DNA of 64,000 nucleotides from Nostoc sp. DedSLP01 (lineage in GTDB: Bacteria; Cyanobacteriota; Cyanobacteriia; Cyanobacteriales; Nostocaceae), in contig JAVRCJ020000010.1 of the NCBI GenBank assembly GCA_034530875.2, positions 179,505-243,504 of the forward strand, in the 5' to 3' direction. Shown piece by piece: positions 41,186 to 57,711 of this stretch. The position numbers were made by a program, and so were the translations under genes. The notes under the pieces were generated by a model. It searched no databases. It was not told the origin of the DNA and was given only the letters and a program-made list of their open reading frames with translations. Position 1 is the stretch's first letter. Every line of letters begins with the position of its first letter.

Positions 41186-41908
41186 ATGGAATTTAATCAC
41201 TTAACAAAGCAGCTGAGTCAACTGCTAGTTCAGGATTACCTAGCATTTAGTATTACAAAAAATCCTGTTGTCCAAATTCTGAGTCAAGCAAGTTTTGCTC
41301 AGATTGCTCATGTCATGCAGCAATATTCCATTTTTCCCAAGGAGTTGGTAGGTTTTACAGAGTTAGCAAGACGGAAAGCGCTGGTATCAGGATGGAACGG
41401 TGTAGCTCAGGAACTCCAAGAAAACATAGATGAAGAGATGGGTAGCACTAGTCAAGGAATCTCTCATTACAGACTTTTAGCTGACGGACTGGAAGAAGGA
41501 CTGGGTATTGCTGTCAAGAACACAATGCCATCAGTTGCTACATCCAAACTGCTAAGAACTGTGCAATCGCTATTCGACGGACAAGTAGACTATGTACTTG
41601 GGGCAACCTATGCCATTGAGGCAACCTCAATTCCTGAGTTGACTCTGATTGTGCAACTTATAGAGTGGTTGCTCGAAGGAGCAATGCCCAAAGATTTGCA
41701 ATATTTTTTTAGCAAGCATTTGGATGAGTGGGAACTCGAACATGAAGCGGGTTTGAGAACATCTCTAGCAGCATATATACAACCCGAACAATTTGCAGAC
41801 TTTGCAGCAGGGTTTACGGCAATGATAGATGCGATGGAGATGTGGTGGCAGGAATTAGCACAAGAGGCAATCTCATCTGGGGTTGTTCTGAGTAAAGCGA
41901 TCGCTTAA
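41186..41908 (+). CDS. CADD-like / heme-oxygenase-like diiron protein (DUF3865-like)
   Basis: Helical 240-aa protein with ENIDEEMG...SHY, YAIEA and FFSKHLDEWELEH, matching the E..H / E / H...E..H ligand layout of CADD-type diiron oxidases. Confidence 0.72.
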   Translation: MEFNHLTKQLSQLLVQDYLAFSITKNPVVQILSQASFAQIAHVMQQYSIFPKELVGFTELARRKALVSGWNGVAQELQENIDEEMGSTSQGISHYRLLADGLEEGLGIAVKNTMPSVATSKLLRTVQSLFDGQVDYVLGATYAIEATSIPELTLIVQLIEWLLEGAMPKDLQYFFSKHLDEWELEHEAGLRTSLAAYIQPEQFADFAAGFTAMIDAMEMWWQELAQEAISSGVVLSKAIA

Positions 41909-41936
41909 TAGCACTGATTAAATAGAATTTAACATT

Positions 41937-43043
41937 ATGATTTCGATCCATCCTTCATTTCTCGATCGCACTTCTAGTATCGAACCACCAAAATTCGGAC
42001 TACCTGGGGATTACTACTTTAGCGATCGAATTTTTGCTTACGAACAGCAAACTATCTGGCGTAATACCTGGCAGTTTGTAGGACGCGAATCCGAACTACC
42101 TAATCCTGGCGATTATCTCACTTGCAATGTTGGCGAGCAACCCATGTTCGTGATTCGAGATAATAACGGCGAATTACGAGCGATGCACAATGTTTGTCCG
42201 CATCGGGGAGCGCAGATGTTACAAGGGCAAGGTCATTGTCAACGGGTGCGTTGTCCGTATCATGGTTGGAACTTCAATTATGAAGGCAATCTCAAAGGTT
42301 TACCCCGCGCTGATTGTTTTCCGAATTTAGATAAGTCGGGTGTCTATCTAGCCAGCGGACGAGTAGAGACATGGGGCGGCTTTGTGTTTGTTCATCCAGA
42401 AGCAGAAGGGGAATCTTTAGTAAGTTATTTAGCTGGATTTTCAGCTTACTTAGAACAATATCCACATTCTTGGCAGGAACTCCAGCAGGTTGACCGTTGG
42501 TTTTATGAAGAGCCAGCCAACTGGAAATTTCCCATAGAGAATTATTTAGAGTGTTATCACTTATCAGTTGTTCATGCCCAAAGTTTAAAGTGTTTCGATC
42601 CGAAGCATATTATTTACACTCCAACTGGACGACACTATCAGATATTTGTACCGTTTACAGATGATGAACTTGTTAAAGATCACCCCGCTTTTTCCGGAGA
42701 ACCAAGCGGACAATCTTACCAGGGCTTCATTTTTCCTAATATGATGGTCAATACTGCAAGAGATAAAGTTTCAGTTTTTCGGCTGACTCCTTTATCTCCC
42801 ACAAAAACTAAATTTGAGGTTTTTATTTATCAAACGAAAGCACAGATGGAAGCATTTCCTTACAAACAGGATGAATTTCGACCGGAATTTGAACGGGTGT
42901 TAAATGAAGACTTTGGCGTAGTGCGATCGCTCCAAGCAAGCGTTCATTCCAAAGCTTATGGCGTACTTCAGCTTGCAGACATCGAATATGGAATTTCTCA
43001 CTTCCATCAAGTTTTGTCGAAGTATTATAGGAATCCGGTTTGA
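41937..43043 (+). CDS. Rieske non-heme iron oxygenase, alpha subunit
   Basis: Rieske ligands CPHRG...CPYHGW, mononuclear-Fe motif NWK...ENYLECYHLSVVH and a distal ED. Confidence 0.9.
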   Translation: MISIHPSFLDRTSSIEPPKFGLPGDYYFSDRIFAYEQQTIWRNTWQFVGRESELPNPGDYLTCNVGEQPMFVIRDNNGELRAMHNVCPHRGAQMLQGQGHCQRVRCPYHGWNFNYEGNLKGLPRADCFPNLDKSGVYLASGRVETWGGFVFVHPEAEGESLVSYLAGFSAYLEQYPHSWQELQQVDRWFYEEPANWKFPIENYLECYHLSVVHAQSLKCFDPKHIIYTPTGRHYQIFVPFTDDELVKDHPAFSGEPSGQSYQGFIFPNMMVNTARDKVSVFRLTPLSPTKTKFEVFIYQTKAQMEAFPYKQDEFRPEFERVLNEDFGVVRSLQASVHSKAYGVLQLADIEYGISHFHQVLSKYYRNPV

Positions 43044-43245
43044 TTTGGAGAATTTATTTGTGTAGACAGGGAGTAGGGAATGGGGAGTAGGGAGTAGGAA
43101 AGAGTGATTTTTGGGTGTACGGATTTTTTTCACCAAATCAAATATGAGTCCTATATTGTCTAAGAGTATCACAAATAATTTGACGATATTTCTCTAATTT
43201 ATCCATTTTCAAATCACCTCAGAGTTTGGTTCAAAAACAATTAAT

Positions 43246-43403
43246 TTAACGTGAATTCGACGAACCTCTCCCTGCCTTGAACTAGTGTTCAAGTCTGTCC
43301 CTCTCTGAATCGGAGAGGGACGGTTTTACTACGTAAAACCAGGGAGAGGTTTTTTATTTGGCTAATTAGGCGGACACTATATAAACCGTCGAATTCACGT
43401 TAA
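43246..43403. mobile_element. MITE with 17-bp perfect TIRs
   Basis: TTAACGTGAATTCGACG (43246-43262) and CGTCGAATTCACGTTAA (43387-43403), with internal hairpins. Confidence 0.8.
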
Positions 43404-43507
43404 TTTAATTAGTTTTTTTTGTAATAAAACTTTGCCAATCGCCCTTTCTGAAATTACAGCGAAATCGCCCTTGCTCAAATCATTCAATCACGCCAGTTTT
43501 GCCACAA

Positions 43508-45580
43508 TCAAGCATCAAAATCTGTCTTTCCCATGCCCCATGCCCAATGCCCCATGCCCCATGCCCCATGCCCCATGCCAATATCGTCGCATATACGCTT
43601 ATCGCTTTCATTCACATTGGGGTTATTTTGCAAATAATCGCGCACCCAAGCACAACCCTTAACCATTAGATCGTTTAAATTCAGATTCCACAGCTTCACC
43701 GTGTTGTCATCACTTGCAGAGGCAATAATTTGACCGTCGGGGCTAAATGCCACGCCCCTAACCGAACTGCTATGACCTTCTAATCGGTTACGTTCTTTAA
43801 CTCCATAAACTACCTGCTGGAGTGTGGCTACTGCCAAAACGCGGGTATCTGGTTCTACATTTTTATCTGGAGTTTTAAGTCGTTTTCCTACCTTCAAGCC
43901 TGCTACTAAAGCCTCAAGTTCTAAATTTGATGCCATCAGGTTTTGTGATTTGAGACTATCAGCGAGAATTTCCGCATTGGTTCGGCGTTTTTCTGCGTCG
44001 GCTTTAGCGACAATTGCTTGCTGTTGTTGATTTTGAGCAATGTTTCGCTGTTTTTCGGCTTCTGCTTGTCTTTGTCTGGCTAGTTGTTCAGCCATTTTGG
44101 TTTTATCGAGTGCATTTGCTAACTTTTTTCCCCTTTCTTCAGCTAATTTTTGTGCAGATTTTGCTTGGTCTTCTCCTTTTTTAGCTCTTGCACTCTGTTT
44201 ATTAGCAATGCGCTTTTGCTTTTCTGCCTCCCGGCGTTGTTCCTCTGCTTTTTTTTGCTGGTTCTCAGCATTTTTAGTTTGACGGTCTGCTTCTTGTCGC
44301 TGTGTTTGTTCTCTTTTCAGGGCATCTTGGGCAATGAGACGTTGCTCTTTTTCACTGTCGAGGGCATTCTGTACAATGAGATTTTGGTTGTAAATATACC
44401 AAGCGACTGCCGTTGATAATGTCGAAAACACTAGCATTACAATCACATAAGGCAGTGCAGGTTTGAGACGCTCCCACCTATCCCGCAAGTTAAACGGCAA
44501 ATGTTTATTAATCCATTTATAATCGAACACCTGCCGATAAATTTCATTCCGCACCTGCAAAACATTATTCTCCCGCCGCACCACCCCCGACAGCTTCAAG
44601 TGAGATTTGATTATCGATTGTTCCTCATCAACAACCGCACGCTTACCGTAACGAATATCGCGGTAAATAGTTAAAACTTCTGGGTCTGGCGAGCGTTTCG
44701 TGAGCATATCGCGAACAAACTGCAAATTATTGTCTTGCTCGCTCATCGCGCCAAAAAATGTGCTGTTAACTATTCTGTCTACATCAGACGCGATGAATCG
44801 CGTCTCTACAAATTTTTGGCTCTCGGCTACTAATGCGCCACAGAGACGCTGGGTTAAATATGGATGTCCGCCTGTCCATTTCAATACCTGGTGTAATATC
44901 TGGTTGGCTTCATCACTGGGTAATCCCAATCCCTCAGCTAGGGGTAAGGCTTCCTCAAAGGTAAAATCAGTTAAATCTACACGGTGTCCAATATTAAACG
45001 GCGTGCGCTTGGCATCGCTGATTAAATCGCCGGGAGTCGCTACCCCCATTAATACAAAAGAAAGCCGATTAAATTCAGGATTTGTAGCACGGGCAACATA
45101 GAGATAACGAATGGCGATAAAAAAATCATCGGTAAAATCTAGGCTGAGGGTAGAGTCAATTTCATCGACAAAAATTACAACTTGCCCCTCAACCTCAGCC
45201 AGCAAAACTTTCTCAAAAAACTGTGTCAGCCGTTGCGATACTCCCAGATGTTCGCGTTCTTGCCACCAACTCACCACATCTGTATCAAACATCAGTTGGT
45301 CATCCAGCTTCACCAAAAAGCCAAAATACCACTGTTCGGCTGTGACACTTGCCCCCAATTCCTGGAGGTCAACAATTACCGAGCGAATGCCCTCATCCGT
45401 CAGCGTTTGCGCCGTGCGTACCATCAGGCTAGACTTCCCCATTTGGCGCGGCGTCAGCACATAAGCGAAAGTTGCCGAACGACATAAACCCAGCAATTCG
45501 TCATCAGCTTGACGGGGAATATAAATTCCACCACCAGCCTGCACAGTCCCGCCAACAGTGTAAACGGTTGGATTAGCCAT
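43508..45580 (-). CDS. AAA_35 (STAND-like) NTPase - TM - coiled coil - single WD40 repeat
   Basis: Walker A-like TPRQMGKSS, Walker [41 protein letters not shown], an E/K/Q/A-rich coiled coil, and one repeat [31 protein letters not shown]. Confidence 0.85.
43530..43578. repeat. STRR heptamer array (CCCATGC x7) inside the 3' end of the AAA_35-WD40 CDS
   Basis: Seven CCCATGC/CCAATGC units, translated on the minus strand as [17 protein letters not shown]. Confidence 0.9.
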
Positions 45581-45779
45581 GTCACAGACTCCGAGAGGAA
45601 GGGAAACGCAAAAGGCACTGACTCAATTTACAATGACATTGTGTAATACATTTTGTCTATCTACCTGAAAATTTCTGTAAAAAAATTGTAGGTCGGGTTG
45701 AGCTTTAGCGTTACCCAACAATTAACGCTTAATGTTGGGTTTCGTTCCTCAACCCAACCTTGTATATTGAGGGAAGAAG

Positions 45780-46050
45780 GAGTATTTGAAATCTATTAAC
45801 GAGTATTTGAGCTTCATTAATGAGGCTTTGAACTTCATTAACGAGTATTTGAACTCCATTAATGAGGCTTTGAGCTTCATTAACGAGTATTTGAACTCCA
45901 TTAATGAGGCTTTGAACTCCATTAATGAGTATTTGAACTCCATTAATGAGGCTTTGAACTCCATTAATGAGTATTTGAGCTTCATTAATGAGGCTTTGAA
46001 CTCCATTAATGAGTATTTGAGCTTCATTAATGAGTATGTGAACTTCGCAG
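45780..46050. repeat. 21-bp tandem repeat array (12 units plus 1 partial)
   Basis: Units GAG(TA/GC)TTTGA(A/G)CT(C/T)CATTAA(T/C), contiguous with no spacers. TAT and GCT variants alternate through most of the array. Confidence 0.95.
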
Positions 46051-46152
46051 GCAATTTTTTTGTAATGTCTGTAATTACCTGCAACTACGCTGTAGTAAAG
46101 TGTATTTAATTGATATGCTAATGCGCTGACATATTGCACTATTTCCCATTAA

Positions 46153-46386
46153 GAGGTTGTTTGAAAAGTGGCTGACTGTGATTTTAATTGCGTTTTTACC
46201 CCCCTTATAAAGGCTACGGTGTACACACAAATCGGATTTTCTTTGTAGATTCGGGTTTTACCCCCCTTAATCCCCCCTTGTAAAGGGGGGAAAAAAGAAG
46301 ATCTAGTTCCCTCCCCTTGTAAAGGGGAGGGTTAGGGAGGGGTAAAAAATATTTAGTACATCAATCATGACTTTTCAAACATCCTC
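46153..46386. mobile_element. MITE, probably IS5/IS1031-like, with TAA target duplication
   Basis: GAGGTTGTTTGAAAAGT and ACTTTTCAAACATCCTC (1 mismatch), with TAA on both sides. It contains a CTACGGTGTACACACAA end from another element family and GC-rich hairpins. Confidence 0.75.
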
Positions 46387-46513
46387 TAAGACTTCATTAG
46401 TTGTGTAGTTATCGGTGAAAGTAAGACACCAAACATCGTTGACGGTGCGTTAGGACTTGCGTCCATAACGCACCCTACCAAACTAATGACTAATGACTAA
46501 TAACTAATAACTA

Positions 46514-48037
46514 ATGACTAAAAATATATTTATCAGCTATAAGCGTAATGTTGACCCAGACGAGCAAGTTGCATTGCAAGTTTACCAGGCGCTATCGCAG
46601 CAACACAAAGTGTTCATCGACCAAACCATGTCCGTTGGCACGCGCTGGGCTGAACGTATTGAAGCAGAAATCCGCCAAGCTGATTTTCTCATTACTTTTC
46701 TTTCAGCCTGGTCAACTCAAAGCGAGATGGTAATAGCAGAAATCGAGACAGCACACCACTTAGCAAAATCACAACAAAGACGCCCGGTAATTCTCCCAGT
46801 GCGTTTGGCATATCACGAACCCTTCGTCTATCCTTTAAGTGCCTATCTCAATGGTATTAACTGGGCATTCTGGAAAGATGCGGAAGATACGCCGCGCCTA
46901 ATTAATGAATTATTACAAGCTGTCTCTGGGAGTACATTGGCTATCAACGAAGAAAAATCTAAGGCAGACTTACTCCAAATAAGTCAGCCGTCACCTCTAC
47001 CCCATCCTTTTCCTTCAGCACAACCGGTTTCTTTAGAAATGCCTGAAGGAACAATGGAATCACAATCTGCTTTTTATGTGGAACGCTCATCAGATGCACT
47101 TGCTTTGCAAACTATTGAGCAGCAGGGTGTGACAATTACCATTAAAGGCCCCCGGCAAATGGGCAAAAGTTCGCTGTTAATTCGCACAATTAAAACTGCT
47201 GTGAATGCAGGTAAGCGAGTTGCTTTGCTGGATTTCCAATTGTTTGACAAAGCTGCTTTAACGAATGCTGACCTCTTCTTTCGCCAGTTCTGTAGTTGGT
47301 TAACTGATGAACTGGAAATGACTGATAAAGTAGCTGAATATTGGAATATGCCCTTGGGGAATAGTCAGCGTTGCACTCGTTATGTCGGTCGCTACCTGCT
47401 CAAAGAGTTTGGCAACCCCCTTGTTTTGGCAATGGATGAAGTTGAAAGAGTTTTTGATACTGAATTTCGCTCTGATTTCTTTGGAATGCTGCGAAGCTGG
47501 CACAACAGCCGCGCCACTACTCCCATTTGGAAGCAACTCGATTTAGCGTTAGTGACTTCCACCGAACCCTACCAACTAATTGATAATCTTAACCAATCTC
47601 CCTTTAATGTTGGGCAGGTGATTGATTTAGAAGACTTCACACCAGCGCAGGTTTCTGACCTCAACCGCCGTCACAGTTCTCCTTTCAACCCCAAGGAAGA
47701 ACAGCAATTAATGGCATTGTTAGGGGGACATCCTTATTTAGTCCGCCTTGCACTCTACTTACTTGCCAGCTACCGCCTCTCTGGTACCGAACTATTTGCC
47801 ACAGCCACCACAGATAACGGCCCCTTTGGCAACCATCTGCGTAACCATCTGTTCCGGTTGCATAGCAAAAAAGAGTTAGTTCAAGGAATGTTCCAAGTAA
47901 TTCGCCAGAACATCTGCGAAGATGAGGGAATTTTCTTTCGCTTGCGGGGTGCAGGTTTAGTCCGCCGCGAGGGGCGTATAGTCTTACCCCGTTGTCAACT
48001 TTACGCAGAATATTTTCGGGAGCATTTGCGTGGATGA
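46514..48037 (+). CDS. TIR domain - AAA_35 (STAND-like) NTPase
   Basis: TIR motifs IFISYKR, VFID and SEMVIAEI (putative catalytic Glu); Walker [10 protein letters not shown]; Walker B LAMDEVE; SPFNVG; GGHPYL. Confidence 0.88.
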   Translation: MTKNIFISYKRNVDPDEQVALQVYQALSQQHKVFIDQTMSVGTRWAERIEAEIRQADFLITFLSAWSTQSEMVIAEIETAHHLAKSQQRRPVILPVRLAYHEPFVYPLSAYLNGINWAFWKDAEDTPRLINELLQAVSGSTLAINEEKSKADLLQISQPSPLPHPFPSAQPVSLEMPEGTMESQSAFYVERSSDALALQTIEQQGVTITIKGPRQMGKSSLLIRTIKTAVNAGKRVALLDFQLFDKAALTNADLFFRQFCSWLTDELEMTDKVAEYWNMPLGNSQRCTRYVGRYLLKEFGNPLVLAMDEVERVFDTEFRSDFFGMLRSWHNSRATTPIWKQLDLALVTSTEPYQLIDNLNQSPFNVGQVIDLEDFTPAQVSDLNRRHSSPFNPKEEQQLMALLGGHPYLVRLALYLLASYRLSGTELFATATTDNGPFGNHLRNHLFRLHSKKELVQGMFQVIRQNICEDEGIFFRLRGAGLVRREGRIVLPRCQLYAEYFREHLRG

Positions 48038-48052
48038 TGCCCAATGCCCAAT

Positions 48053-50197
48053 TTAGGCAACCTGAAAATTAAGGCTAAAACTTGCCCAGTTATTTACATC
48101 TAAGATATATGAGTCAGCAGTTGTAGTGCTGATTTCGGTTTTGATGGCGCTGGCGTTATGCAAGTCTAGTAGCAAAGCTTGTGCAACATATAAGGAATTC
48201 AATAATGGGGCAATTGGGCGCTGGTCGGGTGTGGGATACTTAGCGGTGTTCAAGACGGCGAGGGTTGCAGTGAAGGGGGCAGTACTGAAAATTAGTTGTT
48301 GTTCTGAAAAGAAAGCGGGGCCTGAAATTACCCATTCGGAACCAGCTTTTGTTTGAGGTAAGGTGAGGGTTTCACCTGGGGCGATCGCAACTTCTCTAAA
48401 AAGGGTTTGGGTTTCGGTAGTCTGCGGTTCTGAAGGAGTTTCCCAAGGGTAGAAGGCGAATGCTGTTTGATTATTTTTTAATCCTAGTAAGATTAAGTAT
48501 ACTGGGCGATCGCTTTGATTTTCCAGTCGATACTGCATTTGAGTACCAATAGGCACAATGGGAGTGGGTAGAGACGCGATAACTCTTGTCTGTGCGCCAT
48601 CGGTAGAGACGCGATTAATGGCATCTGTGGAGGTTCGCTGTGTTTGGCGTTCTATTAATCTCTGGGGTGATGTACCGCTAATTATCTCTAAGGTTCCTTT
48701 AATGGCTAGGCGGGAAGAACCTTCATTTTCTGTGAGTCGCCATAGTTTAGCTGCTAGCAAGGTGGATAATTTCGGCGCTAACCGCAGTACTGCAACTTTT
48801 ACAGCTTCGCCAACTTCGCCGGCGGTGTTGGGAATTAATTCGCCATCGAGAGTAAATAGTCCATAGCGACTAGGCGCTTGCTGAAGTTTACCAAATATAT
48901 AATCAGCTGGTTGTTCTCCTGCTACTACGGTGGATACATGAGGGTTTGCAGCAAAGCCACTTGTAGCATCTACTCGTTCAATTCTTTCCAGTCCAGTATC
49001 CAGACCAATTATCAAATTAATATTTTTTGGTAAAACCCGGACTGCTTCTCGAACAATTTGCCCGACTTGTACCGGAGTTGTACCTTCAATTTTGGCTTTT
49101 GCTGTTAACCCGGTACGCGATCGCAATACCAATTGCTCTGTTGTTGGTAGAGTAAATCGAGAATTAACTCCATAGTGTAGCAGCACTTGGGGAGGTAATC
49201 CTGCTAACCACAGATGCACGGTTTTGCCGTCTTCATCAATGGCTTTCACCATGCCTTCTCCACCAATGTTACTGTCTGGAAGTAGAGACGTTACATGTAA
49301 CGTCTCTACCTGTTGGTTTTTCTTAGTGTCTAATAACTTTGGTTCCTGTTTGCTACCCAATTTGTACAGAGAATTTTCTACACGAGAAAGAACAACTTGA
49401 ATTTTTGTCGCTGGGGTAGCTTCCCATAAATACTGAGTCAAGGCGTAGGTAAATAATCCCGCACTAAAACCAGAAAATAGGCCTTCCCTAGCTGACTGCT
49501 TGGAGGTGGAGGTAGCTGTTAAGACAAGGGGAGTGCTGAGTGATTTTTGAGTTTTCAGTTGTTGGAGAAAGTCGAGTTCTTCTGCTATAAGTTTGGCTTC
49601 TACTGGTTCCGGGAGGGCGCGAGTTTTTAAGCCGATGACTGAAGTAGGTGCATCATAGCTAGTATCTAATACTGCTGTGACTAGTTTTGTGGGGAGCGAT
49701 CGCAATAATAATAGTAAAGTTTCTTCTAATAAATAATTGACTATTTTTTCATTTTGTGTAATCTGGCTTTCATTAGCTGGCACTAGAGCATTTTGCATTG
49801 TCTCTGGCGATGTTTCCAATTTGACACGACTGCCATAGCCGCTAAAGTGGAATACTACCACATCACCAGCTTGAGCTTGCTTGCCCAGATGGTCTAAAAA
49901 AGCCGCTTCAATGAATTCTCTATTAGCCTGTTCTTCCGTTAAGGTGAGAATATCTGAACTTTGGAACCCAAAGCGATGAATTAAAAGTTCTTTTTGAAGT
50001 TCCACATCAGTGAGACAACCACTGAGAGCCGGGATTTTTGGGTATTGGTTAATACCGATTAATAATGCCAACTTGCGCGGACTGGGTTGTGCCAAAGCAT
50101 AGTAGTAGCGATTTCCCAAACTCAACCACTCAGCTTCAGTTAGCCCCAATACGGTGAGTATTGAGCCAATTCTGTTTAAAAACGTGCGCCGCTTCAT
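48053..50197 (-). CDS. Caspase-family (C14) homologue with substituted dyad, Tat-like leader and C-terminal DUF4384-like region
   Basis: Leader MKRRTFL; ALLIGINQY and LSGCLTDV; HFSGYG (His to Tyr) and LDTSY (Cys to Ser); GLFTYALTQYL. Confidence 0.85.
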   Translation of the reverse strand: MKRRTFLNRIGSILTVLGLTEAEWLSLGNRYYYALAQPSPRKLALLIGINQYPKIPALSGCLTDVELQKELLIHRFGFQSSDILTLTEEQANREFIEAAFLDHLGKQAQAGDVVVFHFSGYGSRVKLETSPETMQNALVPANESQITQNEKIVNYLLEETLLLLLRSLPTKLVTAVLDTSYDAPTSVIGLKTRALPEPVEAKLIAEELDFLQQLKTQKSLSTPLVLTATSTSKQSAREGLFSGFSAGLFTYALTQYLWEATPATKIQVVLSRVENSLYKLGSKQEPKLLDTKKNQQVETLHVTSLLPDSNIGGEGMVKAIDEDGKTVHLWLAGLPPQVLLHYGVNSRFTLPTTEQLVLRSRTGLTAKAKIEGTTPVQVGQIVREAVRVLPKNINLIIGLDTGLERIERVDATSGFAANPHVSTVVAGEQPADYIFGKLQQAPSRYGLFTLDGELIPNTAGEVGEAVKVAVLRLAPKLSTLLAAKLWRLTENEGSSRLAIKGTLEIISGTSPQRLIERQTQRTSTDAINRVSTDGAQTRVIASLPTPIVPIGTQMQYRLENQSDRPVYLILLGLKNNQTAFAFYPWETPSEPQTTETQTLFREVAIAPGETLTLPQTKAGSEWVISGPAFFSEQQLIFSTAPFTATLAVLNTAKYPTPDQRPIAPLLNSLYVAQALLLDLHNASAIKTEISTTTADSYILDVNNWASFSLNFQVA

Positions 50198-57194: not shown

Positions 57195-57637
57195 ATATTT
57201 TGTAGATATAGCATTTAAAATGAGTTCTGGAATTTTTTATTGAGTGAGGGAATAGGGAATGGGGAGTAGGGAATAGGAAAGAAGGATGAAAAATATAATT
57301 TGATTTTTGATCGGTGGTTTATCTCTGCTATATTTATTGGCGATCGCTTTTATATAAAACTTTTTAATTTGAAGTAACTCAAATAATTATTTAGTTCAAT
57401 AAAAGTTATATTTTAGTTTTATAAATTATTTATGAAGTAGGCTGTGTTACGGTTTTAGCCTCAGGCAAAGCTGTCAACAACCAAAAACAATGCGCAATTT
57501 AGACGCAGATTAGCTTCAAACAAGCAATTATACTTAAAATAGTAAATTTGCTTATATACATATAATTACTTATAAGCTAAATTAATGAATATCCTGGTTC
57601 GCTTTTATGGCTCTTTTAAGCCTATAAATTTAGTAAG

Positions 57638-57711
57638 GGCGAACGATGGGACTTGAACCCACGAATGGTGGTACCACAAACCACTGCCTTAACCACTTGG
57701 CTACGCTCGCC
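57638..57711 (-). tRNA. trnH: tRNA-His (GTG)
   Basis: Reverse complement folds as G-GCGAGCG TA GCCAAGTGGTTAAGGC A GTGGT-TTGTGGT-ACCAC CATTC GTGGG-TTCAAGT-CCCAT CGTTCGC-C. It has the G-1 and C discriminator typical of bacterial tRNA-His; CCA is not encoded. Confidence 0.96.

Follow-up and report, generated by a model that had tools for sequence, protein, structure and literature searches.

Two related genes in the cyanobacterium Nostoc sp. DedSLP01, lying head to head on contig JAVRCJ020000010.1, raise the question of whether such a pair forms a split immune receptor, in which one protein senses and the other executes, and whether the system is a new one. Both genes encode AAA_35 proteins resembling the signal transduction ATPases with numerous domains (STAND), gene A carrying the remnant of a WD40 sensor and gene B a TIR effector domain. 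The DNA examined was the 64,000-nt window that contains them, and it was compared with loci in related genomes and with 12 other cyanobacteria. The system is already published, and what sets this otherwise ordinary copy apart is that one gene is inverted and the sensor has collapsed. The parts of the two genes, numbered along the window, are the following.

43508..45580, minus strand: gene A, a sensor-type AAA_35 (STAND-like) NTPase, then a transmembrane helix, a coiled coil and a collapsed WRAP-type WD40 region (open reading frame and Pfam)
44525..45550, minus strand: AAA_35 domain of A, residues 11–352 (Pfam AAA_35, E 2.8e-37)
44396..44458, minus strand: single predicted transmembrane helix of A, residues 375–395 (hydropathy)
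43931..44383, minus strand: probable coiled-coil stalk of A, Q/E/K/A/R-rich, residues ~400–550 (sequence, alignment and a weak TolA-like match)
43684..43804, minus strand: WRAP-type WD40 remnant of A, a first strand (43778–43804) and one blade (Pfam, PDB match and run contigs)
43631..43657, minus strand: start of the conserved post-propeller tail of A, CxWxxDYL and then a second Cys, in frame (alignment)
46514..48037, plus strand: gene B, TIR followed by an effector-type AAA_35 NTPase with a C-terminal winged-helix-like end, 507 aa (open reading frame and Pfam)
46526..46885, plus strand: TIR_2 domain of B, residues 5–124, with E76 at 46739–46741 (Pfam TIR_2, E 5.2e-21)
47039..48022, plus strand: AAA_35 domain of B, residues 176–503 (Pfam AAA_35, E 8.6e-121)

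The preliminary description of two related STAND-like NTPases with shared motifs, transcribed divergently, holds. The open reading frames are separated by 933 bp, Pfam places AAA_35 in both, across 346 aa the NTPase regions share 29% identity (E 3e-34), and RQMGKSS, hhhhDE, PFN[IV]G and GGHPYL all occur in A as well as in B. Gene A, which measures 690 aa as assembled and probably 731 aa in a two-blade form, had been described as a transmembrane helix, coiled coil and WD40 domain, and here the agreement is partial. The helix at residues 375–395 is present, as is the Q/E/K/A/R-rich stretch, which was read as a coiled coil by eye from its composition, without a coiled-coil program, and varies in length across orthologues; the Pfam WD40 match, by contrast, is a single repeat (residues 598–632) and no propeller.

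Gene B is 88% identical over 505 aa to N. punctiforme ACC84871.1, which, to judge from the adjacent accession number, would be the partner of ACC84870.1 (Npun_R6612). The STAND-WRAP/TIR-STAND operon of N. punctiforme PCC 73102 was reportedly described by Dunin-Horkawicz, Kopec and Lupas in 2014. The best PDB match of the blade in A is 2YMU, with 38 of 42 residues identical to its first blade, and passages of PMC6805158 give 2YMU as the WRAP of Npun_R6612, ACC84870.1. On these sequence grounds the window's pair belongs with the Nostoc WRAP/TIR-STAND pair already published. The two share the two-gene architecture, an orthologous TIR-STAND, an adjacent STAND with a WRAP-type blade and, in the passages of the published account as in this one, CHAT-extended relatives. 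They differ in that the window's genes are divergent and not co-transcribed, linkage being kept and order changed, in the number of blades (one to two in the window, ~14 near-identical ones forming two seven-bladed propellers in Npun_R6612) and in a heptamer-repeat C-terminal extension of the window's A. Because of this orthology, and because passages of PMC9218822 summarise the Npun_R6612 operon together with its proposed role in prokaryotic innate immunity, the central idea of the preliminary description was already in print and the pair is not novel. No functional study of the pair was found in the literature searched, which left subscription papers mostly outside, so that one may exist; six identifiers of the pair were absent from the main-text passages and seven supplementary files of PMC13581612, and the passages of 10.64898/2025.12.03.692087 show nothing on it. 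The system itself is known, and the question that it leaves is what a membrane-anchored STAND with an outward, fast-evolving propeller senses.

[quoted passage not shown] Such pairs, among them RRS1/RPS4, RGA4/RGA5 and Pik-1/Pik-2, have NB-ARC and LRR in both partners and an integrated decoy in the sensor. The window's pair is like them in that two related STAND-type genes, one with a TIR domain, stand head to head here, and a sensor/executor split is plausible. It is unlike them in being built on AAA_35 NTPases, with no NB-ARC, LRR or extra domain in the Pfam scan, in a sensor predicted to be membrane-anchored, and in that the head-to-head order is a minority and derived state. Among 46 loci fetched with B as the query, both genes are present in 41; in 36 of these B precedes A in tandem, the stop and start codons overlapping in most, and in 5 the genes diverge. 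The remaining 5 loci comprise contig ends, one partial match and one broken B with no A nearby. The outgroups (Aetokthonos, Scytonema and a Chloroflexota genome) are all tandem. With 36 tandem against 5 divergent loci and tandem outgroups, the head-to-head order arose by rearrangement from an ancestral operon and is not required, which rules it out as an essential feature and removes the NLR-like arrangement as a matter of design. The proposed linkage of orthologues is borne out, since the genes are not unlinked elsewhere and paralogous pairs co-diverge; the proposed orientation is seen in just the 5 divergent loci. In a quick tree of B (44 rows, L067 and L077 omitted as partial), 6 divergent rows and 2 of unresolved order fall on one branch within Nostoc (SH-aLRT, the Shimodaira–Hasegawa-like approximate likelihood ratio test, 95), and the A tree (38 rows) needs at least 2 orientation changes, the divergent A proteins not lying on one branch. 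The inversion may have had two origins, or alleles may have been exchanged. Kept in a Nostoc lineage, the inverted pair is a natural variant for asking whether co-transcription is needed.

An intact WD40 sensor, as first described, is not found at this locus: one blade is assembled, and two are given by the run contigs and two other assemblies. When A is aligned to its orthologues, the first strand and first blade lead directly into the post-propeller tail. The orthologues have 13–15 blades in 10 of the 10 loci, among the 46, that are complete through the Cys-bearing tail. Three sequencing runs, from one study and possibly including the source, contain 95–97% of the window's words; runs with small word shares were not used. 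The contigs of the three runs show no other letters, just a joint back one blade with 29 letters between, forming a 123-bp in-frame loop. The depth of this loop is 215, 433 and 345 against a single-copy depth of 187, 432 and 427, and the shared unitig has a depth of 416 and 843 in the two runs that list it (~2x). Loop and unitig depth together indicate two blades in the strain, not 14, the second blade in the reads being near-identical and 123 bp long. Two other assemblies hold a 731-aa, two-blade A (P0146 and P0147) that is identical to the window's A up to the blades. The window's assembly probably under-assembles A by one of two blades, and the lineage has truly lost ~12 of 14; with a depth of ~2x and not 14x, the single assembled blade cannot be explained wholly as an artefact of assembling an array of 14. 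The one to two blades of the window's A are read as a collapsed allele, a state that passages of the source paper allow.

The last ~20 codons of A consist of heptamer tandem repeats in place of the usual stop, adding a GHGAW-type tail that the orthologues lack.

Within one protein the blades of orthologues are 76–98% identical, which indicates fast turnover. Among the 120 homologue matches listed, a list biased by its length limits, 38 A homologues have the tail motif at their end, and 11 of these, P0146 included, have one to two in-frame blades, some of which may be assembly collapses; the pattern suggests that in-frame WRAP collapse recurs. According to passages of PMC6805158, a single WRAP blade does not fold and two-blade fragments form tetrameric eight-bladed propellers in vitro, so that a two-blade A could work only as an oligomer. 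The receptor in this strain is probably either blind or obliged to build its propeller from several chains. With its propeller collapsed, the locus offers little for a test of sensing. What interest is left lies mainly in the in-frame two-blade allele, which the depth in three runs supports and which is a natural variant for studying WRAP re-amplification and a possible seed for it. We infer that WRAP collapse may seed the independent re-amplifications reported in passages of PMC9218822. A broader proposal is offered tentatively, with the balance of probability against it: AAA_35 pairs would be a cyanobacterial class of kinase-free hetero-oligomeric transmembrane STAND receptors whose WRAP sensor resets in cycles by shrinking in frame to one or two blades and then amplifying anew, and the strain's two-blade allele, which retains the first strand and the tail, would be a natural intermediate, maybe still sensing as a multi-chain oligomeric propeller. 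If true, this cycle would explain the independently amplified look of close WRAP homologues.

The same allele could instead belong to a copy that is decaying on the sensor side, a two-blade A with a heptamer-repeat read-through tail that senses nothing, leaving B silent or driven by another A-type paralogue. One to two blades against 13–15 in all the complete orthologues would fit such decay, as would the broken or missing genes at orthologous loci L042, L055, L061, L067, L073 and L074 and the frequency of disrupted WRAP propellers described in passages of PMC9218822. However, neither reading frame is broken, and no NTPase motif is lost, nor the helix or the tail. The in-frame state with one to two blades is shared by the 11 of 38 tail-bearing homologues among the matches listed (some possibly assembly collapses), and in the passages of PMC6805158 WRAP fragments of two blades assemble in vitro into folded tetramers. 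Decay is judged unlikely.

Structure models of the two proteins were confident (pLDDT, the predicted local distance difference test score, 84.5 for B and 85.7 for the NTPase of A). The closest folds to the A NTPase are PAB2304 (Z 18.6, root-mean-square deviation 5.0, 304 aligned) and SSO1545 (Z 18.0, root-mean-square deviation 5.0, 310 aligned). The B model matches SSO1545/PAB2304-type ATPases, followed by Cdc6/Orc1, and also RPP1, Avs3/4 and CED-4 folds, and matches of this kind to archaeal ATPases, Cdc6/Orc1 and NLR cores are as expected for a basal STAND. The features of the STAND/MNS clade are present, namely a P-loop AAA+ core, a helical domain with a GxP-type motif (GGHP), a winged helix and MJ/SSO-type ATPases as nearest folds. 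AAA_35 may correspond to the Npun2340/2341 family. Passages of PMC8195603 name this family among MNS-clade STAND NTPases, which the window's NTPases resemble in that their closest solved folds are the archaeal SSO1545 and PAB2304. A two-gene STAND operon with GT4/HEPN effectors, for which a hetero-multimer is predicted in the same passages, likewise pairs two STAND modules; the motifs of one NTPase are eroded there, whereas both keep the Walker K and DE here and come with TIR and WD40. The anti-phage Avs/bNACHT STANDs share with the window's pair a STAND switch and a TIR-class effector, but combine effector, STAND and sensor in a single cytoplasmic chain, in contrast to the two chains and transmembrane helix here. 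The preliminary description had held that a lack of defence-database matches would support novelty. PADLOC (2.0) and NCBIfam returned no anti-phage family match for A, weak ones for B and no Avs model match for either, but the operon is in print.

The sensor was further proposed to face outward. The helix of A has a Kyte–Doolittle maximum of 1.94, with 4 K/R on its N side and 0 on its C side. A hydrophobic helix is found in 37 of the 38 homologues long enough for the test, and 25 of the 37 have K/R in greater number on the side facing the NTPase (N). CHASE2 and PG_binding_1 are extracytoplasmic domains, and in relatives one or the other occupies the WD40 slot after the NTPase, so an outward-facing sensor is likely and the proposal stands. 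A Cys pair follows the propeller in the tail of A, whose sensor module likely lies outside the cytoplasm. For the helix not to be a membrane span, and for a cytoplasmic propeller to bind phage proteins like the Avs and Apaf-1-like STANDs with sensor and effector on two chains, appears very improbable, given the retention of the helix across homologues, the extracytoplasmic modules that follow the NTPase in relatives and the lack of an Avs profile match. The moderate hydropathy of the helix in A does point that way, as do the RPP1, Avs3/4 and CED-4 folds matched by B and the bacterial Apaf-1-like WD40 STANDs reported from cyanobacteria in passages of PMC13581612.

On the effector side, the TIR domain with a putative catalytic Glu is confirmed by the TIR_2 match and by the conservation of E76, which together with F6, S8, S70, E71 and M72 is invariant in 54 of 54 chosen aligned homologues, including a subfamily at 38–39% identity. 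The TIR profile matches Cat1 and AbTIR, and E76 aligns with the Glu of the WCxxE motif (WCWDE) of the Cat1 TIR; phmmer with the TIR alone returned just a weak PDB match. In keeping a Glu at the catalytic position B resembles NAD+-cleaving TIR domains, and it likely cleaves NAD+ itself. Domains found ahead of the TIR in relatives are CHAT, trypsin, EAD9 or a LuxR-type helix-turn-helix (HTH).

Pairing extends beyond this locus. The strain's own genome has 12 short effector-type (B-type) and 11 sensor-type (A-type) AAA_35 genes, and each of the 11 A-type genes lies ~7 kb or less from a B-type gene (7 B then A, 1 A then B, 3 divergent), leaving one B alone; the partners carry WD40 arrays, CHASE2 or kinase-GAF modules. 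The family is held by 12 of 40 other genomes drawn from the phylum, and in those 12 cyanobacteria at least 36 of 55 B-type genes have an A-type gene within 6 kb, at least 27 as B then A and at least 3 divergent, the scoring of candidates having been capped in three of the genomes. The identity matrices of the 11 A domains and their partners correlate (r 0.78, permutation p 0.00015), which indicates that pairs duplicate together, although the correlation owes part of its strength to one outlying pair and two recent duplicates. The A-type domains, including that of A itself, have an invariant DEID Walker B and lack the first Gly of Walker A. The B-type domains have an invariant Arg after Walker B, seen as LR in B beside a canonical GPRQMGKS and a DEV Walker B, the B-type Walker B being variable in non-TIR paralogues. 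A mixed ring would be expected to show such complementary conservation, of Walker B in A and Arg in B. When a complex between the NTPase domains was predicted with ATP present, without control runs, the scores were 0.13 and 0.06 (mark 0.32), which is no evidence either way.

The family also shows variation in its sensor-type partners. Ser/Thr kinase-AAA_16-GAF proteins at L004:578-6463 and L005:513-6350 (G000 C52 and C4), with a B-type gene near each, end in a sensor-type AAA_35 that sits where a histidine kinase is usual. CHASE2 replaces the WD40 of A at the orthologous site in L016, L041, L054 (scanned) and L057 (like L054), once with a Ser/Thr kinase in addition. A second TIR-AAA_35 locus of ~40% identity (L023-L030) has a partner ending in HisKA/HATPase, TPR, peptidoglycan-binding or 3-keto-disaccharide hydrolase-like modules, and this C-terminal module differs between close strains. 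At G034 C1:4.60-4.61 Mb and G146 C25:20-34 kb, one B-type gene is followed by four consecutive A-type genes, possibly a cassette of alternative sensors.

The reading that these observations favour, held with about as much doubt as belief, is that the pair is a split membrane receptor acting in defence or non-self recognition. A would be anchored in the membrane with its propeller outside, and ligand binding there would be relayed through the stalk and helix to its NTPase. The NTPase would co-assemble with B in a mixed ring, A supplying the invariant Walker B and B the invariant Arg acting in trans, and co-assembly would cluster the TIR domains of B and so likely lead to NAD+ cleavage, with defence or non-self recognition as the output. 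Several observations weigh against it. The K/R bias is missing in 12 of the 37 helices, the TIR motif of B is SEMVxxE and not WCxxE, a single blade such as that assembled in A does not fold according to passages of PMC6805158, and the mirror correlation tells of a common history of duplication and not of contact. No Pfam TIR is present in the other 11 B-type paralogues, so that 10 of the 11 pairs in the genome are without one, and the kinase-GAF and CHASE2 proteins among the A-type partners fit general signalling. The PADLOC and NCBIfam matches of B are at the TIR level and all under the cut-off (best PADLOC E 7.4e-5), and the neighbourhood consists of housekeeping and metabolic genes and a siderophore-type non-ribosomal peptide synthetase (NRPS) and iron-uptake cluster, with no defence island in the window.

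Part of this evidence also bears on a different account, in which paired AAA_35 proteins are a general, two-component-like transmembrane relay without a kinase, and the TIR form conveys a cue from the envelope or from symbiosis to a nucleotide messenger or protein scaffold, unrelated to immunity or cell death. The pairs without TIR and the lack of a defence context would follow from it, as would two B-type N-termini with weak HTH matches (E ~3e-4, under the cut-off) and A-type domains placed at the end of kinase-AAA_16-GAF proteins or ahead of CHASE2 or HisKA. Effectors of the TIR, CHAT and trypsin kinds, however, are better explained by an arms race than by a housekeeping cue, as is a fast re-amplified and patchy sensor, with exchange between WD40 and CHASE2 and a TIR gene present in 48 of 127 same-genus genomes (E<=1e-150, the window's own included). 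A general relay is considered rather doubtful.

The 933 bp between the genes contain two repeated elements.

45787..46035, plus strand: tandem array of 12 x 21 nt with a palindromic CATTAATG core, a dispersed genus-level repeat
46152..46387, no strand assigned: element resembling a miniature inverted-repeat transposable element (MITE), with 18-nt inverted ends, between the array and gene B, found at ~12 loci in the genome

The array occurs at 7 loci in this genome (the window and G000 C1, C4, C12 (two), C27 and C44) and in 13 of 15 same-genus genomes against 0 of 9 others. In most Nostoc orthologues it lies ~270 nt upstream of the TIR gene, in 1–15 units. Although 4 of the genome's 7 arrays stand ahead of TIR-STAND, NACHT, Roc-COR or CHAT genes, a role as an immune-regulon operator is not supported, the 16 array loci in relatives lying mostly by housekeeping genes (judged by eye from the starts of open reading frames, without a Pfam scan). 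A small coiled-coil gene is ruled out by the lack of a conserved start and by the range of 1–15 units across loci. A promoter scan of the spacer found 1 site where 3.2 were expected and is uninformative. A second MITE-like element with inverted ends (43233–43416, ~10 loci in the genome) flanks the region of gene A together with that at 46152–46387.

Convergent with B lies a caspase-family gene (Peptidase_C14, DUF4384; 48053–50197; PADLOC caspase match, E 1.9e-14), which was rejected as a third component, being adjacent in just one other record listed (L035, on the same contig as L021). Genes for a DUF3865 (haem-oxygenase-like) protein and a Rieske oxygenase (41186–43043) stand between A and an MTAP-like gene, and in several tandem loci the MTAP-like gene directly follows A. 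Positions 1–35379 of the window look like a siderophore locus, in which an NRPS cluster that includes TauD and PhyH oxygenases lies next to genes for a TonB receptor, FecCD and a member of the penicillin amidase family, and a tRNA-His gene is located at 57637–57710.

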